A stretch of DNA of 48,286 bases from Planctomycetota bacterium. GTDB lineage: Bacteria > Planctomycetota > UBA1135 > GCA-002686595. Below, one piece after another: positions 5,357 through 48,286 of this stretch; position 1 is the stretch's first letter, and each line of letters opens with the position of its first letter. The position numbers and the translations under genes are program-made. The notes beneath the pieces are model-generated. The model did no database searches. It was not told the origin of the DNA and saw only the letters and a program-made list of their open reading frames with translations. Where the stretch lies: positions 1-48,286 of the forward strand of contig JANMRV010000232.1 of NCBI GenBank assembly GCA_031388685.1. Direction: 5' to 3'.

Positions 5357-5360
5357 TCCC

Positions 5361-11077: not shown

Positions 11078-11124
11078 GAAAAGAGGTCGGGCGGAGGCCT
11101 GATCGGGCGGCCTCCGCCCTTTTC
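11078..11124 (-). terminator. Rho-independent terminator between the two paralogs (bidirectional-type hairpin)
   Basis: Perfect 11-bp GC-rich stem GGGCGGAGGCC (11089-11099) / GGCCTCCGCCC (11109-11119) with a 9-nt loop. T runs flank it on both strands: CTTTTC on the minus strand after the stem, CTTTTCG on the plus strand. It lies 40-80 nt downstream of the paralog B stop. Confidence 0.6.
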
Positions 11125-11161
11125 GAGGCCCCAGCTCACGCTGGAGTCCCGCCCCTCGCGG

Positions 11162-18241: not shown

Positions 18242-18744
18242 AGAGCCGCACTCGAGGACGCGAACTCGCGCTGCAGTTCCTGTACCAAGTCGATCTGCGC
18301 GGAAAATCCGCGCTGGGCGAACGCGACTTGTTCTTGAAAGAGGAGGAGCAGGACAAGGAAGCCCGCAAGTTTGCGCAAGCGCGCATCGAGGGCGTGCTCG
18401 AATCGCAGGCCGAACTCGACCGCACGATCCAGGAAGTCGCGCAGAACTGGGACATCTCGCGCATGGCGGTGATCGACCGAAACGTGCTGCGCATCGCCAC
18501 GTTCGAGCTGTTGCACTGCAAAGACATTCCGCCCAAGGTCGCGATCAACGAAGCGATTGAAATCGGCAAGCGCTTCTCGACTTCGAATTCGGGTGCCTTC
18601 ATCAACGGCATCCTCGACAAGATCAAGACCCGCCACGTCGACAAGGTCGCGGGCGCAACGGCGGCCGGCGAGGGCACGAGCGACGCCGCTGTGGCCGCGC
18701 CCAGCGACGCGGTCAGCAGCGACGAACTCGACGAAGACATCTGA
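18238..18744 (+). CDS. nusB: Transcription antitermination factor NusB
   Basis: Motifs RELALQFLYQVDL...W...MAVIDRNVLRIATFELLHCKDIPPKVAINEAIEIGKRFSTSNSGAFINGILDKI, plus the conserved ribH-nusB arrangement. Confidence 0.9.
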   Translation: MKSRTRGRELALQFLYQVDLRGKSALGERDLFLKEEEQDKEARKFAQARIEGVLESQAELDRTIQEVAQNWDISRMAVIDRNVLRIATFELLHCKDIPPKVAINEAIEIGKRFSTSNSGAFINGILDKIKTRHVDKVAGATAAGEGTSDAAVAAPSDAVSSDELDEDI

Positions 18745-18747
18745 GCC

Positions 18748-19668: not shown

Positions 19669-19693
19669 CCGGGACAAATCGTTTTCGAACGCC

Positions 19694-21838
19694 GTGGAAG
19701 CTCGTAGCGTGTCGGGCGTCACCCCCACCATGGCCTGGCTCGACCCTCTGCTCGCGCTGTTATTGCTGTTGCCCGCGGCTTGGCTCGCATACCCAGCGAC
19801 GCTCGCGCAGCAGCTCGAGCCTGAATTGAGCGCGACAGGTTGGTGGCTCCTGCTGCAGATTCCCGCTGCGCTCGTGCTGCTCGCGCGCACGCCGCGGCCG
19901 AAGCTGCCACTGTTGACACTGTTCGCGGTCTTCGTCGCGGTCAGCCTCTTGTCTCTGCAGTTGCGCTCGCCGAGCGACACGCTTTCCGCGTCGCGCGCCG
20001 TCATGGCTGGAATCGCGGGCTTGAGCACGCTCGCCGCCGGTTCTTCGCTCGCTGCGCGCGGCCGCCGCGTCCTCGCGATCGGTTTGTTGTTGATCACGAT
20101 CGCCTTGAGCGTGCCGGCGCTCGCCGGCTCTTCCGCGCGATTGCAGGGCGCGCTGCAGAACAGTGGCGCGACGAGCGAAGCAGCCCTGCTCGGCGCCTTG
20201 GCCGCGCTCGCGCTGCTCGTGACACTGCGCGGCAGTTTGCGCGTGCTCGCGCTGATCGCCATCGCCGCCTACGCGGCCTTCGTGGCTCTCGCCCCGGTGA
20301 TCACGGGCGCTTTGGTCTTTGTCGCTTGCGCGCTCATCGCCTTCTTCCTGCGCGCCAAGGATCGCCGCGCGATCGCGCTGGGCCTGTGCGTCTTCGCGCT
20401 CACGGCCGCCGGTTCATTGGCGACAGCTCGCGCCTTCTCGTCGTCCAAGTCAGCAGCGCAACTCGAGTCGCAAGCGCATGCCGAAGGCCACATCGGCGGT
20501 CTGGCCGTTCGACTCTCGATCGCTCCGCGCGCACTGTCCCTATTCGCGGATCATGCCCTGCTCGGTGCCGGCCCCGGCCAATTTCGCGCCAGTTTCCCGC
20601 CCTATCGCGACGCGACCGAACGCGCTCAGTCCAATCGCGCCGCGGGCAGCGGAGTCGAAAGCGAAGTGGAGCACGCGCACAACGACGTGCTGACAACGCT
20701 CGTCGAAACCGGCCTGCTCGGCGGCTTGCCCTGGATCGCGATGAACGTCTGGCTCGCGCTGCTCGCGCTCGCCGCGCTGCGCAGAGACGACGTCACACGC
20801 ATGGCGCTCGCGCTTGCAGTTCTCGGTGTGCTCGCAAACGCCTGGCTGCGCGCGCCATTGAGTTTCAATCCCGCGAGCGCGAGCTTGTTCTTCGCCGCGG
20901 CGGGCGCGTTGATCGCGCGCGACGAGGACGGCGAAACTGGGTCAGGCGCGCGACGCCTGTTCGCCCTCTTGAGTCTTGCCTTGCTCGGATTGCAAGCGCC
21001 GCGCGCGTGGAGTTACGTGAAGCATGGCCGAGCTATGCGCGCGCCCGATGCGATCGACCTCGACGCAGCGCTCGCCGCCTGTCCCGATTCGCCGCTCGCG
21101 CTTTCGCTGAAAGCGCGCAAACTCGCGGCCGATCCGGAGCAGATTCCGCAGGCGCGCGGCGCGTGGCAACGCGTGCTCGACTTGCGCCCGCAAAACTTCG
21201 AGGCGCTCGTGCAAGCCGGAGTACTCGCCGCCGAATCGAACGACCACGCCGCCGCGCGCGCGGATTGGCTGCGCGCAGTCGAACTCGCGCCCGAGCGAAC
21301 CAGCGTGCTACAGAATCTGCTCTTGCTCGACGCGCGCACCGGCGAAGACGCCGACTTTACGGACACCTCGACGCGCGCAACCGGAAAAGTCGATCGCGCC
21401 TGGGCGATCGAAGCCGGCGCGAAGGAACTACTTTCCGGCGACGAGCGCGCCGCGCTGCGCCTGTGGACCTTTGCGCGCTGCGATTGGGTCTTTGAGACTC
21501 CCGAGCAGGTTTACGAACGCTCGCGCGCCGCCGCGAGCGAACCCTCGCCGCTGGTCAAAGCCTGGGAAATGCTCGCCCACCTGCGTTGGGCGCGCGACCA
21601 CGCCTCGGCCAACGACTTTTCCGGCGCTGTGCGCAGCTATCGCCAGGCCCTGCGACTCGGCCCCGATTCGCGGATCATCAGACTCGAACTCGCCGCTGCA
21701 TTGTGGAGCGACGGCAAGCCGGACGACGCGCGCACCGAAATCGAGCGCGCCGCCGCGCGAGCGTCGGATTGGTCGAGACTGTCAACGTGGGCCGGCGACG
21801 TCCTGCTGAAGGCCGGTCTGTTCCCGCGTGCAGACTAA
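19694..21838 (+). CDS. O-antigen ligase family (Wzy_C) polytopic membrane protein fused to C-terminal TPR repeats
   Basis: 714 aa with about 10 TM segments. The Wzy_C loop and motif is ESEVEHAHNDVLTTLVETGLLGGLPWI. The C-terminal 270 aa are TPR-like (AWQRVLDLRPQNFEALVQAGVL..., AVRSYRQALRLGPDS...). The start could be the internal ATG at 19730. Confidence 0.8.
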   Translation: MEARSVSGVTPTMAWLDPLLALLLLLPAAWLAYPATLAQQLEPELSATGWWLLLQIPAALVLLARTPRPKLPLLTLFAVFVAVSLLSLQLRSPSDTLSASRAVMAGIAGLSTLAAGSSLAARGRRVLAIGLLLITIALSVPALAGSSARLQGALQNSGATSEAALLGALAALALLVTLRGSLRVLALIAIAAYAAFVALAPVITGALVFVACALIAFFLRAKDRRAIALGLCVFALTAAGSLATARAFSSSKSAAQLESQAHAEGHIGGLAVRLSIAPRALSLFADHALLGAGPGQFRASFPPYRDATERAQSNRAAGSGVESEVEHAHNDVLTTLVETGLLGGLPWIAMNVWLALLALAALRRDDVTRMALALAVLGVLANAWLRAPLSFNPASASLFFAAAGALIARDEDGETGSGARRLFALLSLALLGLQAPRAWSYVKHGRAMRAPDAIDLDAALAACPDSPLALSLKARKLAADPEQIPQARGAWQRVLDLRPQNFEALVQAGVLAAESNDHAAARADWLRAVELAPERTSVLQNLLLLDARTGEDADFTDTSTRATGKVDRAWAIEAGAKELLSGDERAALRLWTFARCDWVFETPEQVYERSRAAASEPSPLVKAWEMLAHLRWARDHASANDFSGAVRSYRQALRLGPDSRIIRLELAAALWSDGKPDDARTEIERAAARASDWSRLSTWAGDVLLKAGLFPRAD

Positions 21839-32504: not shown

Positions 32505-34364
32505 TCAGGCATCCGGCAAGGGCACTTCCTTCGAGCCGCGCACGCGCAGCTTGTAGCGTTCGCCGAGCGCTTTGATCGAAAGGTTCGCCTCGACGAAAGC
32601 CTCGAAGTTCTTGCGGGCGAGCGCCTCCTGGATCGAGGCCACATCGCCGGGAGTCAGTTTCGCTGCCGGAGGTTCGCGCTGGCCGAGTGCGCGCACCAGG
32701 TAGCTGTGCGTGCGCGTGCGATCCTGCTGGACCGCGGACACGGCATCGGCGGGCAGGTTGCGCAAGAATCCGTTGAAGCGGATGAATTCGTGCGTGGACT
32801 TCGACGCGTCGGGTTCGTTGTTCTGCTCCGTCGACGTCATCCAATCGCGCCGTTCGACGCTGAGTCCCTGGGCCTCGGCCGCGGCCTTGAACGCCGCTTC
32901 ATCGGCTTTCGGACTTTGGTCGGCCGCGCCCGCTTCGGGCTTCGGAAAGCTGTCGCGGATCAGCGTCAGCTTCGCCACGGCAAGTTCCTGCGACTTCTGC
33001 TTCAGCCATTCGGCGGTCGCCTTCTCGGCAACTTTTTCGAAAGGCGGCGCCGCGTTCTGGTTCTTCTCCAGCACGCGCGGGAACGTGATCCCCGTGAGAT
33101 CGATGGCGACATCGGCGCCGAAATCGTCCTTCTGCGTCCCCGAGATCGAGCGCGCCATGAACGGGCCGCCGAAGTCCGCCAATCCCGTCCACTCCGCGTC
33201 GGTCTTCGCGCCGTCGCTGGCGCGATAGGACAGGCCCATGGCGCCGGCTTCCGCCGCGAGGTCGATGGTCTCGCCCGCCGTCTTGCGCGCCTTGAGGTCC
33301 GCCACCCAGGCGCGGAAGGCGTTGACGACCAGCGCTTCCTGCCTGGCGATCGCGCTGACTTCCTCGTAGGAGCTGATCAGGCGGTCCTTGCCTTCGGATT
33401 CGGGCAAGCCCTCGGGCAGCGGCGTCGCGCGCACGAAGCGCACGCTGGAGTACTGGTTGTAGTAGTCCTTGGCGATCTGCTCTGCGTCCTTGTCCGCGGC
33501 CAGCGGAAACTTCGCCAGCAATCCGGCCGCCGTGTTGTCGGCGCCGAAGCGATAGGCGATCAACTCCGCGGCATTCGACGCGGGCAGGAAGTCCGCCATG
33601 AACTGCGCGCGCTTGTCGGGGATTGCGTCGTACCAGGCCTTCAAGCCGGCTTCGTCGAGTTGTGCCGCCTTGGCCTCGGCATCGAAGCGCGCGTGGTCGA
33701 CTTCGATCAGGTCGAAGGCGTACTGCGGATGCTGCTTCTTCCACTCGCCCTCGATCAGGCTCGCATCGGCGACCAGGGTCGCGCCGCGCAGGAATCCCTG
33801 GTAGCGCTCGATGCGCAGCTTGCGCTTGAGCACGCTTTCGAACACGGGCGCCGAGACGCGCGAGTTGGTCAGGATCGTCTTGTAGAACTCGATGCTCTGA
33901 AAGGCGGGACAGATGCCGGGGAAGCCCGAAATCACGGCGCGCTTGAGGTCTTCGGTCGAGACTTCGATCCCGGAGCGCTGGGCGAGTTCGTCGATGAGCA
34001 GTTCGCTGGCCAGTTCATCGTCCTCGAAGCGGCTGGCCTGCTGGCCGAAGACGCTGCGGAATTCGTCCTCGCGACGCTTCTCGTCCATGAATTCGTAGGC
34101 CGTCCAGGTCTTCTTGCCGACCAGCGGGCCATCCCAGGTCACGTCGTCGCTGCTCGACGATGAGGGCCCGCCGACCGAACTCATCAGCTGATCGCCGACC
34201 GTGAAGAGCACCAGGGTGAGGATCGTCAGGCCGAGCAGGATGAGGAAGCGCAGCTTGCTCGCGCCCTTCGGGACGAGAATCACGTCATCGTCGTGAGCGG
34301 CCTCAGGACGGGTCGCTTCGGGGCCGTGTTGCTCAGGACCGGGATGCTTGGCTTTGTTGGACAT
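32505..34364 (-). CDS. Membrane-anchored PpiD/SurA-N-domain-like periplasmic chaperone
   Basis: Within track ORF 32505..35027; the upstream part overlaps scpB out of frame. From the ATG at 34364 the protein starts MSNKAKHPG... and has one TM, LRFLILLGLTILTLVLFTV. The rest is a long soluble region with SurA_N/PpiD-like character (ELLIDELAQRSGIEVSTEDLKRAVIS). I saw no clear parvulin motif. Confidence 0.5.
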   Translation of the reverse strand: MSNKAKHPGPEQHGPEATRPEAAHDDDVILVPKGASKLRFLILLGLTILTLVLFTVGDQLMSSVGGPSSSSSDDVTWDGPLVGKKTWTAYEFMDEKRREDEFRSVFGQQASRFEDDELASELLIDELAQRSGIEVSTEDLKRAVISGFPGICPAFQSIEFYKTILTNSRVSAPVFESVLKRKLRIERYQGFLRGATLVADASLIEGEWKKQHPQYAFDLIEVDHARFDAEAKAAQLDEAGLKAWYDAIPDKRAQFMADFLPASNAAELIAYRFGADNTAAGLLAKFPLAADKDAEQIAKDYYNQYSSVRFVRATPLPEGLPESEGKDRLISSYEEVSAIARQEALVVNAFRAWVADLKARKTAGETIDLAAEAGAMGLSYRASDGAKTDAEWTGLADFGGPFMARSISGTQKDDFGADVAIDLTGITFPRVLEKNQNAAPPFEKVAEKATAEWLKQKSQELAVAKLTLIRDSFPKPEAGAADQSPKADEAAFKAAAEAQGLSVERRDWMTSTEQNNEPDASKSTHEFIRFNGFLRNLPADAVSAVQQDRTRTHSYLVRALGQREPPAAKLTPGDVASIQEALARKNFEAFVEANLSIKALGERYKLRVRGSKEVPLPDA

Positions 34365-34498
34365 GCTGCTGTGCCGCCCCCCTGGGGCGGATCGCGACAA
34401 CGAACCCGAAGGAAGGCCTCCGGGGTGTCGCTGGGGGCGAAGAGTGTAGGTGCGCCTGCGGCTTGACCGCAACCGTGGAAGCCGCGCAGCCGCCTGGA

Positions 34499-35194
34499 TC
34501 AGGAATCTCGGACGAGTTCCGCGTCGCGCGGCAGGTCCGCGAGATCCGCCAGACCGAAGGTGTCGAGGAATTTGCGCGTGGTGCAGTAGAGCAGCGCATG
34601 CCCGGGATCGTCGGATCGTCCCGCCACCTTGACCAGTCCGCGATCGACGAGTGCGCGCAGGATCGGACCGGCCTGAACGCCGCGAACGGCCTCGATTTCG
34701 GCCTTGGTGACCGGTTGACGGTAGGCAACGACCGCCAGGGTCTCCAGCGCGGCCGGGCTGACCTTGTCCTCGCGGCGAGCCTTGGAGAAGCCCGCCACGA
34801 CGTCGGCCATGTCGGGAGCGGAAAAGATCTGCCAGCCGCCGGCAATGGCGACCAGCTGGAAGGGCAGGCCAGAATTCACCAGGCGCTGCGAGACGCAATC
34901 GATGGCGGCGGCGACGTGGGCCGGGGTCGTGTGCCCCAGGCCGTCCGCGATGCGCGCATTGGAAAGCGGTTCCGAGGAGGCAAAAAGGATCGCGGCGACA
35001 GCGCGCTCGAGCTGCTCCTCGGACCAATGCGAAAGCGCCTGCGCCACTTCGGCGGCCTTTTCCGCATGGACTTCGCGGCCCGCGACCTGCGCGGATTCGA
35101 GGTTGTCTCCCGCTTCGCCCAGGGGCTCGGCCGTGGGCTCGACCGTGGCGATTTCCTCGCTGGTCTCCAGGCTCGAATCGAGTTCGCTGCGCAT
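34499..35194 (-). CDS. scpB: Segregation and condensation protein B
   Basis: Motifs AAILFASSEPLS...IADGL, VAIAGGWQIFS, ALETLAVVAYRQPVTKAEIEAVRGV..GPILRALVDRGLVKVAGR.DDPGHALLYCTT.KFLD.FGL. No scpA is adjacent. Confidence 0.9.
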   Translation of the reverse strand: MRSELDSSLETSEEIATVEPTAEPLGEAGDNLESAQVAGREVHAEKAAEVAQALSHWSEEQLERAVAAILFASSEPLSNARIADGLGHTTPAHVAAAIDCVSQRLVNSGLPFQLVAIAGGWQIFSAPDMADVVAGFSKARREDKVSPAALETLAVVAYRQPVTKAEIEAVRGVQAGPILRALVDRGLVKVAGRSDDPGHALLYCTTRKFLDTFGLADLADLPRDAELVRDS

Positions 35195-36544: not shown

Positions 36545-37579
36545 CTAATTCTTCACGCCGATCAGATGGAAGAAGGGGTCGAGGTCGACGGAGTAGCTCT
36601 TGACCATTTCGGCGCGCCACTGGATGAACTCGAAATCGTCGACGGGGTAGTCCTCGAGGCTCTTTTCGATCGCGGCCCCGTTGTCCTTCCAGTTGCCCGT
36701 GATCGCCGGCAGGAGCTTGTCGACGCGCAACATCAACTGCTTGCCATCGTCGGCCTTGAGCGGCCCGGCGACCTTGCCCACGGGCGTGTTGAAGGCGACG
36801 CGCGAAAGTTCGGCGTTTTCGTTGCGAATCACCGTGATGAGCGCGCCGCCAGGTTCCTTTTCGCGATAGCGATGCAGCTCCTTGGCGAGCGAATCGAAGT
36901 CGCGGCCGGCGGCGAGCCCGACGTTGAAAGCATCCATGGCCTGCTGGTCGGCAAGTTCGACCATGCGCACGACGCAGCGCTCGCGGCCGCAGGCCCATGT
37001 GCGCACGACGCGCTCGGCGATCAGTTGAGCGATCGCATCGCGGCGCAATTGGCGGCGGTAGTACTCGGTGTCGACGCCCAGCTCCGTCTGCAGGTGCTTG
37101 GCGATCGAGATTCCGCGGCCCTGGCGCTCGAGGCTGTCGCCCAACACTTTCCACGCGGCTTCGAGACGCTCGTCGACCCTGCTCTGCGAGACTGCGATCT
37201 CCTGACGCTCGGCTTCGAGCAGAGCCAGGCGTTCGACGACCAGACGATCGAGGACCTCGCGCGAGACATCGCTCGAGCGCAACCAGATGCGCGCGAGGAA
37301 CGAGCGAATGTCGATCGGTTCGCCGGAAACCAGAGCGATGGCGAGGTCCTGGTCAGCAGCCACAGGCGCGGGCGCGCCGGCAGGCGCCGCGGGCGCTTGG
37401 GACTGTTGGCCCTCGACAGCGCTCTCGGCGCGCAGCGCTTCGCGAGTCGACGCGTCGGCGAGTGCCGCGTGCCCTGCGCTGAGGTTCGAGCGCGTCGTGC
37501 CGGCGCAGCCCGCAAGCAGGACGCACGACAGGACGCCGGTCGCCAGTGCACCGCGGAAGGGGAATCGACTCGTTTGCAT
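36545..37579 (-). CDS. SurA/PrsA-like lipoprotein with degenerate parvulin-type PPIase domain
   Basis: Within track ORF 36545..37753. From the ATG at 37579 the protein starts MQTSRFPFRGALATGVLSCVLLAGC (lipobox). It has a SurA_N-like helical region (VLDRLVVERLALLEAERQEI) and a parvulin-like segment (VRMVEL...AGRDFDSLAKEL...PGGALITV...FNTPVGKVAGPLKADDGKQLMLRV). It lies 11 nt downstream of the preceding gene. Confidence 0.55.
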   Translation of the reverse strand: MQTSRFPFRGALATGVLSCVLLAGCAGTTRSNLSAGHAALADASTREALRAESAVEGQQSQAPAAPAGAPAPVAADQDLAIALVSGEPIDIRSFLARIWLRSSDVSREVLDRLVVERLALLEAERQEIAVSQSRVDERLEAAWKVLGDSLERQGRGISIAKHLQTELGVDTEYYRRQLRRDAIAQLIAERVVRTWACGRERCVVRMVELADQQAMDAFNVGLAAGRDFDSLAKELHRYREKEPGGALITVIRNENAELSRVAFNTPVGKVAGPLKADDGKQLMLRVDKLLPAITGNWKDNGAAIEKSLEDYPVDDFEFIQWRAEMVKSYSVDLDPFFHLIGVKN

Positions 37580-37590
37580 TGATTTTGCGC

Positions 37591-39171
37591 TCACCAGAAG
37601 TTCACGCGGCGGATACGGCCGACGCGGTGGCACGAGGGACAGTCGACGACGACCAGACCCGCACTGTTCGCGCCTTGCCCGGGCTGCTGGCCTCCCGTGT
37701 TGGAGCGAGCGCTGCCGGTGTTGATCATCTCGCGCGTGCCGGTGCCGCCGCAATCAGGGCAATTGGAAAGCTCTTCCTTGACGATCCGGAAGTCGCCGCC
37801 GTTCTCGGCATAGTGCGCAAGCAGCCACTGGGCGCGAGCATACGAAGTCCAGCTACGCCAGAAGACTTCCTGCTCGCTCTCTTCGCCTTCCTTCGCACCC
37901 GCGTCGGCTTTCTTCTTCGCCACCATCTGTTGATTGAGGAGGTAACGTTTGATCTTGTCCTCGATCTTGGCGCGCTCGGCTTCGGCTCCGGTCTTCGGTG
38001 CCTCGGCGGGCTTGGCCTGATCCTTGCCGTACTCCTTCAGCGCGGCAGCGTCACCGAGCAGCCACGTGCCTTGACCGTACGATGCGCGGCGGAATCGTCC
38101 GCGCTTGCGCTCTTCCCAGAGCTTCTTGATCTCCTCAGGCTTGACGCTCGCACCCACGGCACGCTGCAGGTCCGCGGTCACGGCGGCGAGCAGTTCGTCC
38201 TTGAGCTGCTCGGAGATGTAAGCCAGCGAACTCTCGAGCGTTGCGCCATCCGCTTTCGCCTGTTTGTCGGCAAGCCGCTCGGCCCACTTGTTCCATCGTT
38301 CCGTGACCATCTCACGCAGGGCCGCGAGGCGCGATTTCTCGACTTGCTTCTTCTTGCGATCGACCTCGGTCCTGAGGGTCGAGTCGGGCCACTTCTGAAG
38401 AAATGCTTCCAGATCCCTCAGCGCGGCATCGTATTGCCCGCGGGCGCGCTTCGAGTCGACTGCGTAGAGATAGTCGAGCTGCGCCTGATTCGCGGCCTTT
38501 TCTTGCACGCGCAGCAGGGTCGGCTTGAGCGATCCATTGTCGAAACCCGGATCGATCATGGCTGCAGCCTTGTAGTGTTCGAGCGCGCGCGAGAAGTCGA
38601 AGATGCGCTCGCAGTACTTGGCCAGGTCAAGCTCGCTCTGCGCGCTCTTGGGGTCGAGCTTGTCCGCCTCGGCGCGGTACAGTTCCTCGCGCGTGAACAC
38701 GTCTAGGGCAGGCACGACCACACTGGTCACCGCCCCGCTGATGCGTCGCTTGGGAACCGGAACCAATCGCTCGGCGGTCTTGACGAAGATCTCGAGCTCG
38801 GTGCGGCTGACGATGCGGCCGACGATCTCGGTGCCGTCGTCGAGTTGCAGCCGGTCGGCTTCGACGGTCAGTTCGTCGCCGGAGTGATCGACATAGCCAA
38901 ACTCCTCGAGCATCGCGCCCGACTGGGTCGGGTCGATCTGCTTCCAGGGCATGCGCACGATGCCGCCGTTGTCCAGGCGCTGGAACGAGAGCCGTTCGGA
39001 GTCGTGGCCGAAGATGCGGCCCCACAGGGATCCGCCATCGGCGAGCTTCAGCAACATGACTTCGCCGGTCGCGCCGGCATCGTTTTCGCCATCCTGAGCC
39101 TCGCACGGCGTAGCGAAAACACTGAGCACGATGGACAGGATCGCGCACGGAATGAATCGAATGGGCTGCAT
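37591..39171 (-). CDS. Secreted helical/TPR-like protein with C-terminal DnaJ-type CxxCxGxG zinc finger; function unknown
   Basis: Within track ORF 37591..39789. From the ATG at 39171 the protein starts MQPIRFIPCAILSIVLSVFATPCEA/QD (Sec signal). It has a Lys/Glu-rich helical body and the C-terminus NCPDCGGTG...(28 aa Gly/Gln/Ser linker)...DCPSCHRVGRIRRVNFW. Its start overlaps the upstream stop (TGATG). Confidence 0.7.
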   Translation of the reverse strand: MQPIRFIPCAILSIVLSVFATPCEAQDGENDAGATGEVMLLKLADGGSLWGRIFGHDSERLSFQRLDNGGIVRMPWKQIDPTQSGAMLEEFGYVDHSGDELTVEADRLQLDDGTEIVGRIVSRTELEIFVKTAERLVPVPKRRISGAVTSVVVPALDVFTREELYRAEADKLDPKSAQSELDLAKYCERIFDFSRALEHYKAAAMIDPGFDNGSLKPTLLRVQEKAANQAQLDYLYAVDSKRARGQYDAALRDLEAFLQKWPDSTLRTEVDRKKKQVEKSRLAALREMVTERWNKWAERLADKQAKADGATLESSLAYISEQLKDELLAAVTADLQRAVGASVKPEEIKKLWEERKRGRFRRASYGQGTWLLGDAAALKEYGKDQAKPAEAPKTGAEAERAKIEDKIKRYLLNQQMVAKKKADAGAKEGEESEQEVFWRSWTSYARAQWLLAHYAENGGDFRIVKEELSNCPDCGGTGTREMINTGSARSNTGGQQPGQGANSAGLVVVDCPSCHRVGRIRRVNFW

Positions 39172-39653: not shown

Positions 39654-40771
39654 AGGTCCCAATCCTCCTGCGAGAGCCGCACCGGAACTTCGCGCCTGTA
39701 GGTCTCGCCGAAGTGGATGCGCGCGCCGCGCTCGTGATTGGCGGCGCGGGTGCCGCGCATGCCGCGCTGCACGGAAACGTTGCGGCCACCGGGCGTGCTG
39801 AGCTTCAACCATTCGCCGTCGATCTTGACGAAGGACACCGACGTCGTCGGCAGGCGCTTTTCGTCGTCGACCAGCATCGTGTTGGCGCCGAGCGCCAAGA
39901 ACTCTGCAAGCCGCGTGCGCTTCTGCGCCTCCTTCGGCCGTTCGAATTCGAGTTCGATCTTCACGCGCCGCGGCAGCAGCGCGCGCTGCTTGGCCTTCGG
40001 CATGCCCGCGCCCGGTTCGTTCCACACGTGCAGCAGCGCGTCGGGCCGTTTCTTGCGCCAGGCGTCCCAGGAGAAACACGAATCGCTCAACTGATCGCCC
40101 GCATGCCAGCCATGGCTCAGCGTGGTCATCTGAGTCGCGAACTCGAAGCCCAGCCACAACACGCCGCCGCTGACTTCGCTCAGCGCACCGGGCGTCGGTT
40201 CGCCGCCCTTCGAGAAGAAGCGCTCGTCGAAGTAGGAGACTTCCTTGCCCGGCACACGCGGCGCATTCGGGTCGTCGCGCGGCGTGGCCAGGCGCTCGCC
40301 GCGCAGCACCAGGCCTTCCGAGCGGCGGTCCTGTTCCTGCTTGCCCTTGTAGGCGGGCACGACGGCCCAGGCGACTTCGATCAGGCCCTGCCCTTGATTC
40401 GGGTCCTTTGAGCGGAAACGCAGACGCGCCAGCTCGGCCTCGGAAGCGTGACGCACGAGCCGCAGCCTGGGCCACAACGCATCGCCGGCGCCGTCGCCAT
40501 CGGTGTCGAAGGAAATCCACTCGGCCACAAGGTCGCCGCGCGCGCCGCCGTCCATCTGGACCAGATCGTTGGCCAGCAATTCGCCGAGCGCCGAGGATTC
40601 CTCGACGCGCGCGCGGCGCGTTTCGCTCTTGTCCCACACGCCGATGAAACCGCGCATCACGGCGAATACGGAAACCATCAGGAGCGCGAGCAGGCCGACG
40701 GCGATGACCAGTTCGATCACGGTCAAGCCGCGCCGTGACGAGCGGGTCGCGCGGATCCGAGCAGCGCTCAT
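39650..40771 (-). CDS. Minor pseudopilin, GspJ-like (enlarged, 373 aa)
   Basis: Within track ORF 39650..42223. The ATG at 40771 overlaps the upstream stop (ATGA). The N-terminus is MSAARIRATRSSRRG/LTVIELVIAVGLLALLMVSVFAV with Glu at +5, followed by a J-like helix ...RRARVEESSALGELLANDLVQM. Confidence 0.75.
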   Translation of the reverse strand: MSAARIRATRSSRRGLTVIELVIAVGLLALLMVSVFAVMRGFIGVWDKSETRRARVEESSALGELLANDLVQMDGGARGDLVAEWISFDTDGDGAGDALWPRLRLVRHASEAELARLRFRSKDPNQGQGLIEVAWAVVPAYKGKQEQDRRSEGLVLRGERLATPRDDPNAPRVPGKEVSYFDERFFSKGGEPTPGALSEVSGGVLWLGFEFATQMTTLSHGWHAGDQLSDSCFSWDAWRKKRPDALLHVWNEPGAGMPKAKQRALLPRRVKIELEFERPKEAQKRTRLAEFLALGANTMLVDDEKRLPTTSVSFVKIDGEWLKLSTPGGRNVSVQRGMRGTRAANHERGARIHFGETYRREVPVRLSQEDWDL

Positions 40772-43700
40772 TCGTCGACCCTCCGCAACGTGAGACCGGG
40801 CCCGAGGTACTCGACGCCGAACTGCGTCAGGCGCGGTGTGCGCTTCCAGCCGTGCGAAAGTCCGTTCGTGAAATCGAACGCGTTCGGCGCATAGCGCACG
40901 TAGACGCGCCATTCGAGGGCGTCGCGTTGAATGCCGATCGTGCGACCCGCTCCGTCCTTCAACCCCTGCTCGATTCGCGCCAGATTTTTGCTCAGGTCCG
41001 TGGAAGGTTCGTCGTCCCAAGCTGTCAGCGGGTTGGAACGCTGCAGCACTTCGATCTTCGTGCCCGGCGGTTCGTCGGCCTGGAAAAACACGTCGCGCCA
41101 GAAAGCATTGGGTTGATCGATCGAGAATCCGAAGTAGGCCAGTTCCGGCGCATCGGCGCGATCGGCCCAGCGATCCCAGTAGCGGAACGGGAAGAGGATC
41201 ACGGGTTCTCCGGCGGAATGCGCCGACGGTGAGGTGCCGAAGCGTCCGCGGAAAAGGCCGCCGCCATTGTCGTCCATGGCGCCGGGCTTCGAAGATCCGC
41301 GCGGCATCTCGAGCTGCGTGCCGGCGAGGTGCGTGTAGTGGATCAATTCGCCGCCGATCAGGACCGTGCCTTGGCTCGGAAAATCCGTGGCGTCCTCGAG
41401 TTGAATGATCGCCGAGCCGGGGCTGAGCGAACCCGCCAGCGTGGTCACGATGCGCGATTCGAGCCAGGTCGCCGTCTCGCCGATCTCGTGCGTCTCCTCC
41501 GTCGTGCCCAGCAGTCCGCGGCCGCTGCTGGCGATCGTGATCAGTCCGCTGCTCGAGTCGATCGAGTCGTAGCACAGGATTTCCGATCCGATGCGCAGCA
41601 AGCCGGCGTCCTTGGGCAGGTCGTCCAGGAAGATGCGCGTGTCGCCGAGCAGGCCGCGCGCGACGCGGATCACCTTCGGAAACGTGTAGAATCCCGACGA
41701 GCCCGCGGCGAGAGGCAGGCTCACCGTCATCTGTGCCGCCTGCGCCGCCTCGGCGTGCACAGTGCCCTCGCCGAAGTGCGGATTGCCGAAGGCGATCTCG
41801 TCGACCACAGCCGAGGGCATTCCGGAACCGTTGAGCGCGCGGCCGATCTCGACCTGCGTCGCCTCGCGCAGCCGCTCGCCCGAAGGGAAGAGCGTCAGAC
41901 GTGCGCGCAACCGGGTCTCGAACGCGCTGACATTGGGCAGGGAGGTGCCGGCGGCGATCGGCGCGCGCAATGCGGCATTGGCGGCGACGAAGATGTCGTT
42001 CAGGTTGCCGATTCCGTACTCCACGGCGCGGATCGGGATGCCGGCGACGGGGGTCATCGTGTTCGCACCCGGGATCCAGTCCGCTTCCACGTACTCGCGC
42101 GGCCGGTAGGAGCGCTGCACTTCGAGCGGCCAGCCTGGATCGCTCGGCAGCGCATCGACGAGGAAGGCCGCGTCGCCGTGACCGGGCTGTCCGCTGTTGA
42201 CGTCGCCGCCTTCGACGCGCCACACGGCGTGGACCTTCGTGTTCTTCTTGTGCGCGTGCGAATACGTGCCGAACACGCCGCGGAATTGCAGCGCCGTGCG
42301 AGCAGCGCGCGTGACCGGCGCGGAAAGATCCTCATCGGTGCCGACGTAAGGCAGCCACTGCGCCGGCACGTATCCGGGCGGGTTCTGCGCCGGCGGCGCG
42401 GCGGGTGGCGCAAACGAACTTTGGGCGCCTCCCCCATTCGTGCCGGGCGGCGCGAAAGGCGGAGGCGGAGGCGGAACCGGAGGCTGACCGGTGCCGCGCG
42501 GCGCGCCGATCACGATCTCGCGGCAGTGGGCCAAGGCCACGGGATCCGAACGCACGAGCTGCGTCTGTTCGATGCGGTCGTAGCGCACCCACTCGGTCAA
42601 CTCGGCCGCGCCCAACTCGGTGATCTGCGCGAACTCCGAGCGGCCGATATTGTTTCCCTGCGCCACTTGCGGAACCAGGAACGCATTCGCGCTCGCGCCG
42701 GCGTTGATCGAAATCGGCAGGACGAAGATCTTGCGATCGAGCTCGGTGTCGGGATCGACGCCGCCGAAGGTGATCTGCCAGTCGAGGATGAAGGCGTGCG
42801 GGCGTGTGTCGTTGTTCTCGCTGGGCAGCGCCGCGCGGCGATCGATGTACAGGACGTCGTTGGTCCAATTCGTGTAGTGAACGACTTCCGTGCCCCAGAT
42901 CGGCGAGTTGTTCAGCGTCACCGCGATCGTGCCCGGCGGCTGGCCCTGCACCGTGGCTGGGCCCAACTGCATGAGCAGCGCGTATCCACCAGTCTTCTGG
43001 AACGCGGCCATCATCGTCGCGGTCGTCATTGGCGACGGATCCGCCGGCAGCAGCTTCAAGCCCGTGATCTGGCTGGTGTAGCCCTCCATGCCCAGTCCGA
43101 GCGGAAAGACGAAATTCTGAATGCTGATCGGCTCGCCGGGATTGTTGGTGCCGTTGGATTCGAGCCCTGAGACATAACCGACCGCGAAACGGCCGATGTC
43201 CTCGAACAACGTGCCCTCACCGAATGGCGCGTTGCCCGCGAGCGGCAGGCTGTAGCCGTAGAGTTCGACCGGCGTGCCGGTCACATGGTTCTCGTTGACG
43301 GTGCCCTTTGCCTCATTCGTTCCCGGCTCAACGGGATTCGTTTGGGGCAGGCTGAATCTGTTTCGCGCCAGTCTTCCGCCGAAGCCGGCGTCCACACCGG
43401 AAACTTCGTGTTGCGCGACGAAGGTCGTCGCGTTCTGGCGTTTGTACTCGATCAATTCGTTGCCGATACGCGCGACACCGCGGTCGGGAAAACCCTCGCC
43501 GCTCTCGACCGTGAAGACCAGCGCGTCGACGCCGAAGGTCGAAGTCAGACGCGTCAATCCCGGCGTGCGCACGCCCAGCGCGCGGCCGTCGATCGAAAGC
43601 GAAATCTGATCCGGGCGATTGCCGCGCACGTCGATTTCGATGTGGCTCCATGTGTCCTGCGCGAGCCCGGGCCCCGTTCCCGCGGCGAGTTCGAAGCGCG

Positions 43701-45840
43701 CTTCGCCGAATTCCTTCAGCACACTGGCCGGGTGATCGCCCGGTCCGTCGATCACGCGCAGCACGAGGTCGGGTCCTTCGATCCCAAGCCAGACTCGATC
43801 GGTGTCGAGCGCGCCCTTGCCGAAGTCGACGAAGGTTCCATCGCCGATCTGACGCGGCCGGATCCAGAAGGACGCGCTCAAGCCGCGCGCCAATCTGCCG
43901 GGGCCCGGCGACCACTGCACCTTCTTGTCGTCGGGCAGATACGTGATCGGCTCGTCGGGCAGGTAGCGGCCTTCGAGATCGCGGGTCTCGTTGTCGAAGT
44001 GCAGCATCCGGCCGCTCGTGAAGGCGGTCTCCTCCACGCGCGAAGGCATCAGTTGAATCCAGGCCGTTTCCTCGCGCGAAGCGAAGACGTGCTGCGGATT
44101 CGGTACCTCGTCGGCGGCGACGACCGTGCGTCCGGGAACGTAGGGCTGGTCCTTCCAGGTTCCAAAGTGCGCGAACAAACGCGACGGCGGGACGGACGGA
44201 CCGTCGAAGCGCGAAGTCGCGTTCGGACCGCTCGCCCACAACGGCGCGTCGCTGGTGAGGCGGATCGCTTCCTCGAAGTCCTCCTGGCGTGCCCAGAGGG
44301 TCAACAAATCGTCCTGCGGAATGATCACTGCGACTTCCTCGCGCACGCCGCTCGAGCGCAGCACCCCCGAGGGCGCATTGACCGCGGCACGCGCGTGCAT
44401 CGCGTAGACGTCTCGAGAGACGAACGAAAGCGGCATCGTGGAATACGAGAGGCGCTCGTCGTTCGCGTTGAGAGCGTTCGCATACAGCGCGAGCGCATCG
44501 TCAGCGTCGATCAGGTTGCCGGTGGCGCTGGCCAGCACAGCAGGCGTCACCGGTGCATCCTTGGGCAGCGACTCGATTCCGGCCGCGGGCAGCACGACAC
44601 GTCGCAGGAAGTCCTCGAGGCCGAGCAGCGGCCGCGATTCGATCGCGAGCACCGCGAGCTTGCCTGCCTCGTCGCGCGTGATCCGACTCGAGCGGTTGAT
44701 GATCTGCAGGTTCAAGAACAGCGCTTCGAGCACCTCGACCGGAGCCACATTGACATTGACCGGGCGGCGCGCGAGCGGCGCGATCGTCGCGCGATAGCCG
44801 AGGTAATCCATGCGCACGGGATTGAAGAGCTTGATGCCGTTCCCATCCTGCAGCGCGAGCACGATCCCGAACTCGATCGTGCGCCCGTCCGTGATCATGA
44901 CCGTCGTGCCCGGATTGAAATTGCGGCGCTCGTTCACGCGCACCAGGCAATCCTCGCCCGCCTTCAGCGCGTTGGTGATGCGCACAGCGCGTTGCCATTG
45001 CGGCCCGGCGCGCACGCCTCCGTACACCGAACCGCGCTGCTCGAGTGCCGCGCCGAAATCCTGTCCGAGAACGCCGCTCAACGCGAGCGGCGCACTGTCG
45101 CGCACCTGCTCGATCGCATCGAAGCTGCGCAGTCCCTTCGAAGCGTCGGCGATGCGCCACATCGGTATCGCGAACGCGCGCTGATCGACCACCGCGAGAT
45201 TGATCGAGTGATCGAGCGCCGGACTCGGGCCGCAGCCGGTCCAGTTGCCGTCCTTGTCGACGTTGGCCGTCAGACCGCGTGTCAGGCCGGCGAACTTGCC
45301 GTCCTCGATCGAGGTGTAGCGCACGAGTTCCGCCCCGACCCACAGGAAGCCCTCGGGCTCGAATCCGAAGGTCGAGAGCACGCCGATCGCTTTCGCCTTG
45401 CCCTTGAGCGGCTCGGCGAGACGCGTCACGCAGCCCAGCATGTTGGCGAACATCTGCGGCGGCGCGCTGCCGACATCGATGCGGCCGGCGACATCGAAGG
45501 CGTCGACGTCCCACATGACGGCGCGCGGGTCGTGGTTGTTCCAGAAGCCGGGCTCGAGCGTGCTCGTGACCGTGAGCTCGTCCTGATCGTCCCAATACGG
45601 CGTGGCGTCGCGCGCGGGATGCGAGCCGCCGAGGTTGGCGCGCGCGTGCTTGATGCCAGCGTCGAGCGCGAGCCTGGTCTGCACCTTGTCGGACAACTGC
45701 GTGCTGGCCTTCGAAGCGTTGCGCGCGGTCATCAGGAACGGCGCGCACAGGATCAAGAGCGCGATCAGCACGAACAGCACGCTCAGCACCGCGAAGCCGC
45801 GGCGATCTGCGTGCCCACGATTCCATGCGCGGTACTTCAT
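40768..45840 (-). CDS. Giant (1690 aa) GspK-like minor pseudopilin with about 1200-aa extension
   Basis: The N-terminus is MKYRAWNRGHADRRG/FAVLSVLFVLIALLIL, hydrophobic like a pilin but without Glu at +5, as in GspK/PilX. GspK-like segments are WDVDAFDVAGRIDVGSAPPQMFANMLG and RRPVNVNVAPVEVLEALFLNL...ITRDEAGKLAVLAIESRPLLGLEDFLRRV. A Pro-rich linker PVPPPPPPFAPPGTNGGG lies at about 42421-42480. ATGA overlaps occur at both ends. Confidence 0.75.
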   Translation of the reverse strand: MKYRAWNRGHADRRGFAVLSVLFVLIALLILCAPFLMTARNASKASTQLSDKVQTRLALDAGIKHARANLGGSHPARDATPYWDDQDELTVTSTLEPGFWNNHDPRAVMWDVDAFDVAGRIDVGSAPPQMFANMLGCVTRLAEPLKGKAKAIGVLSTFGFEPEGFLWVGAELVRYTSIEDGKFAGLTRGLTANVDKDGNWTGCGPSPALDHSINLAVVDQRAFAIPMWRIADASKGLRSFDAIEQVRDSAPLALSGVLGQDFGAALEQRGSVYGGVRAGPQWQRAVRITNALKAGEDCLVRVNERRNFNPGTTVMITDGRTIEFGIVLALQDGNGIKLFNPVRMDYLGYRATIAPLARRPVNVNVAPVEVLEALFLNLQIINRSSRITRDEAGKLAVLAIESRPLLGLEDFLRRVVLPAAGIESLPKDAPVTPAVLASATGNLIDADDALALYANALNANDERLSYSTMPLSFVSRDVYAMHARAAVNAPSGVLRSSGVREEVAVIIPQDDLLTLWARQEDFEEAIRLTSDAPLWASGPNATSRFDGPSVPPSRLFAHFGTWKDQPYVPGRTVVAADEVPNPQHVFASREETAWIQLMPSRVEETAFTSGRMLHFDNETRDLEGRYLPDEPITYLPDDKKVQWSPGPGRLARGLSASFWIRPRQIGDGTFVDFGKGALDTDRVWLGIEGPDLVLRVIDGPGDHPASVLKEFGEARFELAAGTGPGLAQDTWSHIEIDVRGNRPDQISLSIDGRALGVRTPGLTRLTSTFGVDALVFTVESGEGFPDRGVARIGNELIEYKRQNATTFVAQHEVSGVDAGFGGRLARNRFSLPQTNPVEPGTNEAKGTVNENHVTGTPVELYGYSLPLAGNAPFGEGTLFEDIGRFAVGYVSGLESNGTNNPGEPISIQNFVFPLGLGMEGYTSQITGLKLLPADPSPMTTATMMAAFQKTGGYALLMQLGPATVQGQPPGTIAVTLNNSPIWGTEVVHYTNWTNDVLYIDRRAALPSENNDTRPHAFILDWQITFGGVDPDTELDRKIFVLPISINAGASANAFLVPQVAQGNNIGRSEFAQITELGAAELTEWVRYDRIEQTQLVRSDPVALAHCREIVIGAPRGTGQPPVPPPPPPFAPPGTNGGGAQSSFAPPAAPPAQNPPGYVPAQWLPYVGTDEDLSAPVTRAARTALQFRGVFGTYSHAHKKNTKVHAVWRVEGGDVNSGQPGHGDAAFLVDALPSDPGWPLEVQRSYRPREYVEADWIPGANTMTPVAGIPIRAVEYGIGNLNDIFVAANAALRAPIAAGTSLPNVSAFETRLRARLTLFPSGERLREATQVEIGRALNGSGMPSAVVDEIAFGNPHFGEGTVHAEAAQAAQMTVSLPLAAGSSGFYTFPKVIRVARGLLGDTRIFLDDLPKDAGLLRIGSEILCYDSIDSSSGLITIASSGRGLLGTTEETHEIGETATWLESRIVTTLAGSLSPGSAIIQLEDATDFPSQGTVLIGGELIHYTHLAGTQLEMPRGSSKPGAMDDNGGGLFRGRFGTSPSAHSAGEPVILFPFRYWDRWADRADAPELAYFGFSIDQPNAFWRDVFFQADEPPGTKIEVLQRSNPLTAWDDEPSTDLSKNLARIEQGLKDGAGRTIGIQRDALEWRVYVRYAPNAFDFTNGLSHGWKRTPRLTQFGVEYLGPGLTLRRVDE

Positions 45841-46854: not shown

Positions 46855-47496
46855 TCACTTCTTGAAATTCGAGATGTCGTCCGCGGTGCCGAACCTGCCG
46901 TCGATGCCGGCTGAAAACAATTGGAAGCTGCTGGGCTCCTCGTAGCGGCCGGTCGTCGAATTCTTCAGCGCGCGCAGCGTGGCCTCGTTCTCCTCGCCGG
47001 TCTCCGTGTCGACGAAGATGTAGCGGAACTCGCGCTCGTAGTCCGAAGCGCGGATGTAGACGATCGGGTTGCCCCACGGATCGGCCATCTCGAGCAGGTC
47101 CTGGGTCTCGAAACCCTTGGGCCGCTTGGAGAGCGCGTCGCGATCGGTGTTGCACAGATATTCTGCCTTGCCGAGCGTCGCGTATCCGGGCGCGCCCTCC
47201 GCGCACAGCGCCAGGTACAGGCACTCCGAGCCGACGTTGGTCGCGTCCGGCGCCGTACCCAGGTCGCTTGGCAACTGCGAGGGCGGATACTCGCCGTGTT
47301 CGTCGGAGTGTTCGCCCAGCGCCGTGCCCAGTTGCGCGAGCCGATTCCTGGCGACGCCGGCCTTGACCGCATCCTCACCCTGCATGAGGCTCGAGACCAG
47401 CACTGCGATCAGGATCGCGAGGATCATGAGCACGGCGAGCAGCTCGATCAGCGTGAAGCCGGCGCGTGTCGAAGATCGGTGGTGAAATTGCCTCAT
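46855..47496 (-). CDS. gspG: Type II secretion system major pseudopilin GspG-like
   Basis: Within track ORF 46855..47748. From the ATG at 47496 the N-terminus is MRQFHHRSSTRAG/FTLIELLAVLMILAILIAVLV with Glu at +5. T2SS-G C-terminal motifs are DPWGNPIVY and FQLFSAGIDGRFGTADDI. Confidence 0.85.
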   Translation of the reverse strand: MRQFHHRSSTRAGFTLIELLAVLMILAILIAVLVSSLMQGEDAVKAGVARNRLAQLGTALGEHSDEHGEYPPSQLPSDLGTAPDATNVGSECLYLALCAEGAPGYATLGKAEYLCNTDRDALSKRPKGFETQDLLEMADPWGNPIVYIRASDYEREFRYIFVDTETGEENEATLRALKNSTTGRYEEPSSFQLFSAGIDGRFGTADDISNFKK

Positions 47497-47516
47497 CGGC
47501 CGCTGCTCCATGGCGC

Positions 47517-48286
47517 TCAGGGCGCGCGAGACTTGACGATCTGGACGTTGTCGATCGTGATGTCCACGGGTTGACCGCTGTCGCCCCAGGCCATCAGGCC
47601 GACGCACACATCGCCCGCGGAGGCGATCGAGCGCAGCGAGAATCGATCCGCGACGGGAATGCCGTCGACGCTGATGCGGCCGATCGAATCGGAGCCTTCG
47701 CCGATGCGCTCGATGCGCAGGCGCACGGGCTTGTCGAGCGGCCACCACGGAATACCGCCTACCGGCGCGATGTCGACGCGTTCAGGTTCGGCGGTGGCGC
47801 GGTCCATCAAGAGCACCTGCAATCCGCCCTCGGGGTGACGCTCGACGGCGATCCAGCTCGTCGGCGCCGCGTTGCCGCGGCTGCCTTGCTTCTCGCGCGT
47901 CATGAACATGCCGACGTGGGCGGAAGTCACGCTCGCCACGGTCACGTCCATCTCGATCGAAACGAAGTCCTTCGAATGGTAGCGGCGCAACAGGCGCGCG
48001 CGCCCGTCGGTCTGCTTGATGGATCCGCGCAGGTGCATGGCATTGTCGCCGAGCGAAAAGGTCGCACCGGCGGCTTCTTCCACGTCCCACTGGTTCGAAC
48101 CGGCGTTGCCGCTGCGGTCGAAATTGTCTTCCCAGGCTTCCTTGGCGACGTGGTCGCCGATGCGCTTGATCTGGGCCAGCGTGAAGACGCGCCAGGCATC
48201 TTTTTCCGGCAATTTTCGCCGTGCGTCGTCGAGCGCGCGGAACAGTTCGATCGCGCGACCAAAGTCGCCCTTGCGATAGGCGCACC
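47517..48286 (-). CDS. TPR-containing protein with C-terminal concanavalin/LamG-like beta-sandwich (partial; continues past window end)
   Basis: Track ORF 47517..48212 begins at a TTG, but the frame stays open to 48286 (..CAYRKGDFGRAIELFRALDDARRKLPEKDAW.., a TPR-like helix pair). The C-terminal 200 aa are beta-rich and end VDITIDNVQIVK. The gene lies 20 nt upstream of the gspG-like gene. Confidence 0.6.
   Translation of the reverse strand, partial: CAYRKGDFGRAIELFRALDDARRKLPEKDAWRVFTLAQIKRIGDHVAKEAWEDNFDRSGNAGSNQWDVEEAAGATFSLGDNAMHLRGSIKQTDGRARLLRRYHSKDFVSIEMDVTVASVTSAHVGMFMTREKQGSRGNAAPTSWIAVERHPEGGLQVLLMDRATAEPERVDIAPVGGIPWWPLDKPVRLRIERIGEGSDSIGRISVDGIPVADRFSLRSIASAGDVCVGLMAWGDSGQPVDITIDNVQIVKSRAP

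Follow-up and report, generated by a model that had tools for sequence, protein, structure and literature searches.

In type II secretion systems (T2SS), the capping subunit of the GspK type is a protein of about 330 residues that serves to start and end the pseudopilus. The GspK-GspI-GspJ tip complex primes assembly, caps the filament, and also makes contact with substrates and the secretin. PilY1 and other large tip adhesins are proteins in their own right. Here, we describe a gene from a 48,286-nucleotide stretch of Planctomycetota DNA (contig JANMRV010000232.1 of assembly GCA_031388685.1; hereafter, the window), the product of which is probably a GspK-type minor pseudopilin, i.e., the capping subunit of a T2SS-like (type IV filament) pseudopilus, that has been expanded to about 180 kDa and carries a ligand-binding head at the tip.

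The open reading frame (ORF) occupies positions 40768 to 45840 of the minus strand, the strand having been omitted from an initial annotation of this DNA, and runs for 1690 codons plus a stop as an uninterrupted single frame. At 5.2 times the length of GspK (1690 versus 327 residues), its product is enlarged about five-fold, just as that annotation had stated, and the ATGA overlaps that it had described with both neighbours are present at either junction, i.e., with the upstream gene at the start (...GTCGAATGAAGTAC...) and with the downstream gene at the stop (...GACGAATGAGCGCT...). The protein begins as MKYRAWNRGHADRRG/FAVLSVLFVLIALLILCAPF, with a short basic leader followed by a hydrophobic helix (RRG/FAVLS, the slash marking the putative prepilin-peptidase site G15/F16). 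Here, Gly15 at position -1 is at least 90% conserved across the giant GspK-like family, and the residue at +5 is a serine, which agrees with the earlier remark that the N-terminal helix lacks a glutamate at this position. Two GspK-type motifs follow at residues 116-129 (DVAGRIDVGSAPPQ) and 360-374 (PVNVNVAPVEVLEAL), and it is at these very segments, already singled out as GspK hallmarks in the initial annotation, that the GspK models align. The G+C content is about 66% across the whole window, and the composition shows no break at the giant gene.

A protein homology search with the giant protein returned 206 matches, and among the best 120 of these, from which all figures on length are taken, 118 are 1673 to 1868 residues long, with the other two being truncated entries. 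The full-length homologues align along the entire length at 41-76% identity, and residue conservation in the family is distributed over the complete protein. When a profile of residues 1-600 was searched against 1.84 billion cluster representatives (50% identity clusters), 992 clusters were found at E ≤ 1e-3 and 306 at E ≤ 1e-30, the full-length proteins listed being 1300 to 1870 residues long. Moreover, 117 loci among the GTDB species representatives encode a relative of the giant protein. All of these are in metagenome-assembled genomes (MAGs), and every record title naming a phylum gives Planctomycetota. The proposed check of homologue lengths and taxonomic range has revealed a family that is almost entirely full length among the listed homologues and is planctomycetal wherever the phylum is named. 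The habitats of these MAGs include lakes, groundwater, soil, marine water, and wastewater, and the homologues are labelled in the databases as 'hypothetical' or by the automatic names PulG or PilX. That the ORF is instead an artefact, either a chimera of assembly or a run-through of several genes, is a reading to which its unusual length alone lends anything, and we consider its chances negligible. The single frame is without stops, 118 of the 120 listed homologues share the same length, and the relatives stem from independent assemblies of many habitats, reach down to 36% identity, and have conserved residues along the full length, while both halves of the protein give confident AlphaFold2 (AF2) models. 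With full-length homologues, conservation over the whole length, and independent MAGs, we reject the assembly chimera that had been raised as a counter-explanation in the initial annotation, the synteny being likewise fixed over 80 loci.

To examine the relationship with GspK, 28 members of the giant family were scanned with the Pfam and NCBIfam models, the latter including the GspK equivalog NF037980 (307 positions, curated cut-off of 130 bits). This model matches all 28 members (best E 5.6e-11 and best score 42.5 bits) and scores highest in the more distant relatives of 1300-1500 residues (E 1.1e-14, 54.6 bits). Its match to the window protein itself is weak (residues 14-72, E 2.8e-4, 20.5 bits against the cut-off of 130). 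The matches fall in two collinear stretches, at model positions 2-108 and 206-249. Other NCBIfam models for pilus filaments gave just Verru_Chthon_A, at the N-terminal helix alone, and a marginal GspM/XpsM match (E 0.059) in one member. Pfam T2SSK (PF03934) matches 18 of the 28 members at E ≤ 1 (best E 2.5e-6; gathering score 24.2), and although weak in the window protein (residues 361-378, E 4), it is present as a precomputed match in three homologues. In a comparison of family profiles by hhalign, the N-terminal part of the giant family and a GspK profile made from 34 homologues of Escherichia coli K-12 GspK were aligned with 93.2% probability (E 3e-7), the significance coming mainly from residues 11-129. 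With a permissive (low mact) alignment, the two are collinear over residues 9-526 and GspK positions 2-319. Here, the α1 helices are paired with each other, DVAGxIDLNSA with DxQxCFNLNAL, and PVNxNTA..vLeaL with INVNT..LLxAL, and further along ESRP is paired with xxRP and SRDVY..l.a.V with the SxxF strand. The similarity to GspK that had been forecast for the N-terminal third was found with all three approaches. Against the PDB sequences, the best match of the N-terminal profile is XcpX/GspK (5vtm_X) at the second motif, though it is not significant (E 1.1), and the full-length profile gave no match. A Pfam scan of the giant protein, both whole and in four pieces, returned nothing above threshold, and the N_methyl model (IPR012902) does not match it. 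As judged by these sequence comparisons, the homology of the giant protein to GspK is well supported but remote, and to classify it as an equivalog would be unwarranted.

The AF2 model of residues 1-600 (91-sequence alignment) has a predicted local distance difference test (pLDDT) score of 90.4 and a predicted TM-score (pTM) of 0.87. It opens with a 60-residue helix (residues 14-73), followed by a strand (108-116) and then by a short helix (128-135). Next come a barrel (138-219; termed R1), three helices within residues 220-269, and another barrel at 286-356, after which a five-helix bundle that contains the T2SSK-type motif (368-457) precedes a long β-hairpin (478-505). This order of secondary structure is compatible with an α-domain placed between strands one and two, as in chain K of 3CI0. 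As modelled, residues 1 to about 530 are a GspK-type module, the helical domain of which is interrupted by two small β-barrels, and residues 220-285 probably represent what is left of the first helical subdomain in the GspK α-domain. Conservation within the protein is highest (0.74) at residues 357-460, which encompass the putative helix-hairpin-helix subdomain. When the model was compared with structures in the PDB using Foldseek, the matches were mostly to the inserted barrels, namely phage tailspike N-domains and ATPase N-terminal barrels, at TM-scores of about 0.1, these being low because the query is multi-domain. Foremost among the matches of the N-terminal barrels is 4Y9V (E 1.3e-4), with 4RU4 and 8VJH also included (phage tailspike or tail tip).

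For the remainder of the protein, an AF2 model of residues 601-1690 (45 sequences) is predicted to be almost entirely β (pLDDT 85, pTM 0.82). The initial annotation had recognised no motif in these roughly 1200 downstream residues, and indeed no Pfam match lies above threshold there. Foldseek searches with the extension gave the jelly rolls of neurexin LNS, laminin LG, agrin, pentraxin, and botulinum neurotoxin HCN in the PDB (E 2e-6 to 1e-2), and concanavalin A (ConA)-like and large structural proteins of (cyano)phages in BFVD. As the global TM-scores are all low, this is a similarity of domains and not of whole proteins. A profile of the R1 barrel matches the extension at residues 763-808 (3.8e-8), 1411-1450 (1.5e-3), and 1466-1548 (6.6e-10), the last two being the tandem copies R6 and R7. 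Reciprocal profiles add weak matches at 983-1010 and 1176-1203 (R7 independent E-value 5.6e-4, R6 independent E-value 0.014), and residues 1083-1096 match the R1 profile non-significantly (independent E-value 0.47). The repeat is about 80 residues long and follows the pattern h-h-R-I-G-x-E-l-I-x-Y ... R-G-x-x-G-T-x-x-x-x-H. Matches to the PHROG families coincide with the repeat segments, and include the baseplate wedge family phrog_708 at R1 (4.5e-5), and the tail protein family phrog_1101 (2.7e-6), phrog_7578 (9e-7), and the virion structural protein family phrog_4406 (4.4e-4) at R6/R7. The latter segment is also weakly matched by Pfam Rcc01698_C (E 0.017), and no dedicated Pfam model for the repeat was identified. 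Taken together, the extension holds at least three, and probably four or five, further copies of the R1-type barrel.

One stretch of the extension had earlier been taken for a proline-rich hinge, at about 42360-42480. A proline-rich stretch does occur here (residues 1116-1156) and is the sole long disordered segment in the model of residues 601-1690. Across the homologues it varies from 29 to 84 residues and has the lowest conservation of the protein, apart from the 15-residue leader. Given this variable length and low conservation, as well as the high pTM, the stretch would be a surface loop. We thus reject a hinge between modules in favour of a variable loop within one split repeat, the split-repeat assignment itself coming from weak profile matches.

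Turning to the genomic context, the giant gene is part of a cassette that encodes, in order, a TPR protein, a GspG-like pseudopilin, a GspH-like pseudopilin with a LamG domain, the giant protein, a GspJ-like and a GspI-like pseudopilin, and a secreted protein of 526 residues. In a tblastn comparison of 80 related loci, this order is kept wherever the contig reaches (69-75 of the 80 loci for each gene), and the pseudopilin partners G, H, J, and I adjoin the giant gene with translational coupling, their order being kept in about 70 of the 80. The GspI-like orthologue on the related contig L002 matches Xanthomonas XpsI (E 6.4e-7, residues 2-114 of 132). On the same contig, which is 286 kb long, three genes sit upstream of the cassette and encode an FHA protein, a protein resembling PilM, and a 278-residue protein, with the PilM-like protein belonging to the Amuc_1101 family (E 2.8e-35), a type found in the pilus cluster of Akkermansia. 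Together with the TPR gene, these suggest an assembly module specific to the Planctomycetes-Verrucomicrobia-Chlamydiae (PVC) superphylum.

This context bears on whether the protein is polymerised at all. It could alternatively be a membrane-anchored periplasmic or cell-surface protein with a pilin-like signal-anchor that provides the PilM/TPR/FHA complex with a scaffold or stator, or that acts as a binding protein tethered to the inner membrane. Such an anchor would sit well with the lack of ATPase, platform, secretin, or peptidase genes nearby, with GspK matches that are all under the curated cut-offs, and with a globular mass so large that its passage through a secretin is awkward. We nonetheless find it rather improbable, as the glycine at -1 is conserved, the order of GspK motifs runs well past the helix, and the gene is strictly co-linear with those of G-, H-, J-, and I-like pseudopilins that have canonical GF(T)xIE sites in about 70 loci. 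Moreover, the helix-hairpin-helix subdomain and the closing hairpin are the most conserved parts of the protein, which fits a retained assembly interface.

Returning to the expanded pseudopilin as the preferred reading, and by analogy with GspK-GspI-GspJ, the N-terminal module would join the I- and J-like proteins in nucleating and capping the filament. The 1160-residue extension would then form a bulky ligand-binding head at the tip, with the function of a cap and that of a PilY1-like tip adhesin being united in one polypeptide. Since both kinds of domain found in the extension typically bind ligands, glycans, or receptors, and since LamG occurs in the H-like neighbour as well, tip-mediated binding seems the most likely role. 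As these domains are lectin-like or of the phage receptor-binding type, the most plausible ligand would be a glycan or a polymer of the cell surface. Alternatively, the protein may sit as a tip or piston head on a true secretion pseudopilus confined to the periplasm, with the extension offering a substrate-docking platform that pushes out exoproteins or polymers. Here, the major subunit of the cassette is of the GspG type (DPWGNP...DG..GT.DD motif, TIGR01710 match), its minor partners resemble GspH, GspI, and GspJ, and contacts of the GspK-I-J tip with substrates and the secretin are known, all of which would suit a piston. Yet no secretin and no GspC are found nearby, and LamG and phage-tail-type domains are characteristic of binding modules exposed to the outside, so we hold the piston to be a less likely, if credible, explanation. 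Our computations do not separate the periplasmic piston from the externally exposed adhesin.

Several observations weigh against an expanded GspK-type cap. No member of the family reaches the curated cut-off of NF037980 (best 54.6 versus 130 bits), and the first SAM-like subdomain, PF21687, matches none of the 28 members at E ≤ 1, even though it is present in nearly all bona fide GspK homologues; in the giant protein, the inserted R1 barrel takes its place. When single E. coli sequences were used (GspI and GspJ were also tried), hhalign scored GspK at 32.3, GspG at 27.6, and GspH at 24.9, and from the closeness of these values part of the signal is that of a generic pilin helix. Likewise, no GspK structure was among the top 50 Foldseek matches of the residues 1-600 model in the PDB. 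As regards the machinery, tblastn with E. coli queries (E 1e-4) found no GspD, E, F, O, or L within 10 kb in the 80 loci or in the window, and motor and channel must therefore be encoded elsewhere. In addition, a standard secretin may not accommodate a folded head of about 180 kDa, and the location at the tip, the processing, and the binding of a ligand are matters that we infer.

A bolder proposal would be an undescribed PVC-type fibre, in which a T2SS-derived pseudopilus acts as an extracellular 'harpoon' with lectin and phage-tail-origin barrels at its tip, captures polysaccharides or the surfaces of prey or partner cells, and is built by a non-canonical FHA/Amuc_1101-type PilM/TPR machine without a classical adjacent GspD/E/F. 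We regard this as speculative and improbable, but if true, one example would be the fibres that have been suggested to supply the uptake of macromolecules in Planctomycetes. The positions of the cassette genes and of the segments of the giant protein are collected in Table 1.

Table 1. Cassette genes in the window and predicted segments of the giant GspK-like protein, listed in the direction of transcription.
Feature	Position	Strand	Characteristics and basis
TPR protein gene, 3' end (full length about 900 aa), cut at window edge	47517..48286	-	Full-length orthologues on related contigs L001 and L002 carry TPR domains
GspG-like major pseudopilin	46855..47514	-	GFTLIE; DPWGNP...DGRFGTADD; TIGR01710 E 2.3e-12; N_methyl
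GspH-like minor pseudopilin with LamG domain, 337 aa	45837..46850	-	N_methyl; Laminin_G_3 E 3e-7; gspH N-terminal match
Giant GspK-like protein, whole coding sequence, 1690 aa	40768..45840	-	Full-length homologues 1673-1868 aa
Residues 1-73: basic leader, putative site G15/F16, α1 helix 14-73, no Glu at +5	45622..45840	-	AF2; NF037980 14-72; G15 conserved
Residues 74-137: first strand 108-116 and D-V-A-G-x-I-D-l-N-S-A motif	45430..45621	-	hhalign to GspK D-x-Q-x-c-F-N-L-N; NF037980 to position 108
Residues 138-219: inserted β-barrel R1, GAELVRY...LTRGL	45184..45429	-	AF2; phrog_708 E 4.5e-5; Foldseek phage barrels
Residues 220-285: helices 220-229, 243-252, 260-269	44986..45183	-	AF2; second hhalign alignment 82%; length 65-122 aa across homologues
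Residues 286-356: second inserted β-barrel R2	44773..44985	-	AF2; phrog_1082 tail assembly protein E 0.0076
Residues 357-460: helix-hairpin-helix/SAM-like, RRPVNVNVAP...ESRP...EDFLRRV	44461..44772	-	PF03934 in 18/28; NF037980 206-249; 5vtm_X match not significant
Residues 461-530: β-hairpin 478-488/494-505 closing pilin-type sheet	44251..44460	-	AF2; hhalign to GspK C-terminal strands, S-x-x-F
Residues 531-640: connector, invariant HFDxETRDxEGRYLPD	43921..44250	-	Conservation; AF2
Residues 641-782: LamG/ConA-like jelly-roll	43495..43920	-	Laminin_G_3 E 0.015 here, 8/28 members; Foldseek
Residues 783-870: repeat copy R3, VARIGNELIEY...GFGGRLAR	43231..43494	-	R1 profile 763-808, 3.8e-8
Residues 871-1074: β-rich, fold without assignment, weak repeat copy near 983-1010	42619..43230	-	AF2; reciprocal profiles
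Residues 1075-1210: split repeat copy, TEWVRYD ... FRGVFGTYSHAH, with inserted Pro/Gly-rich loop	42211..42618	-	Weak profile matches; AF2 confident on both flanks
Residues 1116-1156: Pro/Gly-rich loop, predicted disordered	42373..42495	-	pLDDT < 50 (516-556 of C-terminal model)
Residues 1211-1404: β-rich, fold without assignment	41629..42210	-	AF2
Residues 1405-1555: tandem repeats R6, R7 (LLRIGSEILCY...GRGLLGT..H; VLIGGELIHY...FRGRFGT..H..G)	41176..41628	-	R1 profile; PHROGs
Residues 1556-1690: conserved C-terminal β-sandwich, FPFRYWDRW...HGW motifs	40771..41175	-	Conservation; AF2
GspJ-like minor pseudopilin, 373 aa	39650..40771	-	GLTVIE; N_methyl; TIGR01711 gspJ N-terminal match E 4.8e-4
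GspI-like minor pseudopilin, about 159 aa	39171..39650	-	GFTIIE; N_methyl E 5e-5
Secreted protein, 526 aa, last cassette gene	37591..39171	-	Signal peptide; TPR; C-terminal CxxC...CxxC zinc ribbon

The companion pseudopilins are also enlarged, with 337 residues in the H-like protein, 373 in the J-like protein (about twice the 195 of E. coli GspJ), and about 159 in the I-like protein, such that the whole tip complex may be oversized. The genes that precede the pseudopilins on related contigs (L002, 813-8251) encode an FHA/YscD-like protein, the PilM-like (Amuc_1101) protein, the 278-residue protein of no known function, and the TPR protein of about 900 residues. At the other end, the 526-residue protein closes the cassette in 69 of the 80 loci, its ribbon reading CPDCGGTG...CPSCHRVG, and a family assignment was sought for it with none found. 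Further downstream, genes for SurA_N/PpiC-rotamase-like periplasmic chaperones lie at 32505-35027 and 36545-37753, both on the minus strand, and as such genes are found likewise in L001 and L002, they may be co-functional with the cassette. Elsewhere in the window, an unrelated resistance-nodulation-division (RND) efflux operon on the plus strand (383-9125) encodes a HlyD-family membrane-fusion protein and two AcrB-type transporters (1145 and 1254 residues), and a minus-strand gene (13121-16882) encodes a 1253-residue Ser/Thr protein kinase fused to WD40 β-propellers, a type of fusion characteristic of Planctomycetota and Myxococcota genomes. No Pfam match at E ≤ 1e-3 was obtained for three long ORFs (631, 609, and 764 residues; 9165-12991 and 17968-20262, minus strand).

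If the preferred reading as an expanded pseudopilin is right, the cap itself can grow to about 180 kDa, in a family of at least 300 clusters (50% identity) and more than 100 species-level Planctomycetota MAGs, and this expansion reuses a domain otherwise seen in phage tails. It would offer a handle on the roles of type IV filaments in an under-studied phylum with unusual cell-envelope biology, and would lend itself to testing how a filament tip can bear bulky cargo. The giant family is not covered by any model in Pfam or NCBIfam, and our literature searches (GspK with Planctomycetes; the Verru_Chthon cassette) yielded nothing relevant beyond a paper on modular pilins (PMC8179133).

When set against known systems, the giant protein most resembles GspK/XcpX/EpsK (NF037980; PF21687 and PF03934; 3CI0 chain K and 5VTM chain X). 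The two share a prepilin-like N-terminus without Glu at +5, a long α1, a helical domain with two (I/V)N(x)N(T)A...L..L-type motifs (in the giant protein, its place within a pilin sheet is putative), a closing β-hairpin, and a gene located among those for GspG/H/I/J-like proteins, and the profile matches between them are collinear. In contrast, the giant protein is 5.2-fold longer, has two barrels in its helical domain and a C-terminal extension of 1160 residues, and scores far under the family cut-offs, while neither the PF21687 subdomain nor the DWID...GAED..Y segment was detected in the giant family. Moreover, the gene order is G-H-K-J-I instead of the G-H-I-J-K of GspK systems, and GspC-F or GspL-O genes are not adjacent.

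Within the PVC superphylum, the Verru_Chthon cassettes of Verrucomicrobia and Chthoniobacter, which are uncharacterised, pair a giant protein A with the pilin-like proteins B, C, and D (models TIGR02600 for A, with 1296 positions and a cut-off of 332 bits, TIGR02598 for B, TIGR02599 for C, and TIGR02596 for D). Like protein A, the giant protein is encoded with pilin-like partners in a member of this superphylum. Its N-terminal helix is weakly matched by that of Verru_Chthon A in 7 of the 28 family members (best E 0.0022), and the H-, J-/G-, and I-like neighbours weakly match the cassette proteins D, C, and B, respectively. Membership in TIGR02600 was rejected, as positions 1 to about 72 of the 1296 alone are matched, with at most 18.4 bits against 332, and the sequence of the protein body is unrelated.

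PilY1/PilC are tip adhesins that act with the minor-pilin complex of type IVa pili, and are separate, non-pilin proteins with a C-terminal β-propeller. Here, the likeness would be in the proposed role alone, that of a large non-repetitive head of more than 1000 residues on a minor-pilin complex. Homology to PilY1 was rejected in favour of a functional analogy, as there is no PilY1/PilC match from Pfam or NCBIfam and no propeller among the Foldseek matches. With the tail, baseplate, and tailspike proteins of phages (phrog_708, phrog_1101, phrog_4406; 4Y9V, 4RU4, 8VJH; Rcc01698_C), the giant protein shares the barrel of about 80 residues in both sequence and fold, but the likeness is confined to this domain, the gene lacks a phage context, and the architecture is otherwise unrelated.

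Lastly, modular pilins have been defined by an N-terminal pilin module joined to one or more extra domains that are not specific to filament biology (Raynaud et al., 2021; PMC8179133), and include Streptococcus sanguinis PilB (vWA) and PilC (ConA-like lectin), CofB of enterotoxigenic E. coli, and Thermus ComZ, with the modules expected at the tip. The ConA/LamG-type lectin module (PF13385) is among the commonest grafts, and the most extreme multi-domain pilin in the InterPro survey of that study has 860 residues (PMC8179133). The giant protein meets this definition, as it combines a GspK-type module with a LamG/ConA-like domain (PF13385 in 8 of the 28 members) and phage-tail-like barrels. It differs in that its pilin module is of the GspK type and is itself interrupted, in that the grafts are many instead of one or two, and in being about twice as long as the largest case surveyed (1690 versus 860 residues; PMC8179133). 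The architecture is widespread and unnamed, and conceptually is an extension of the modular minor pilins.

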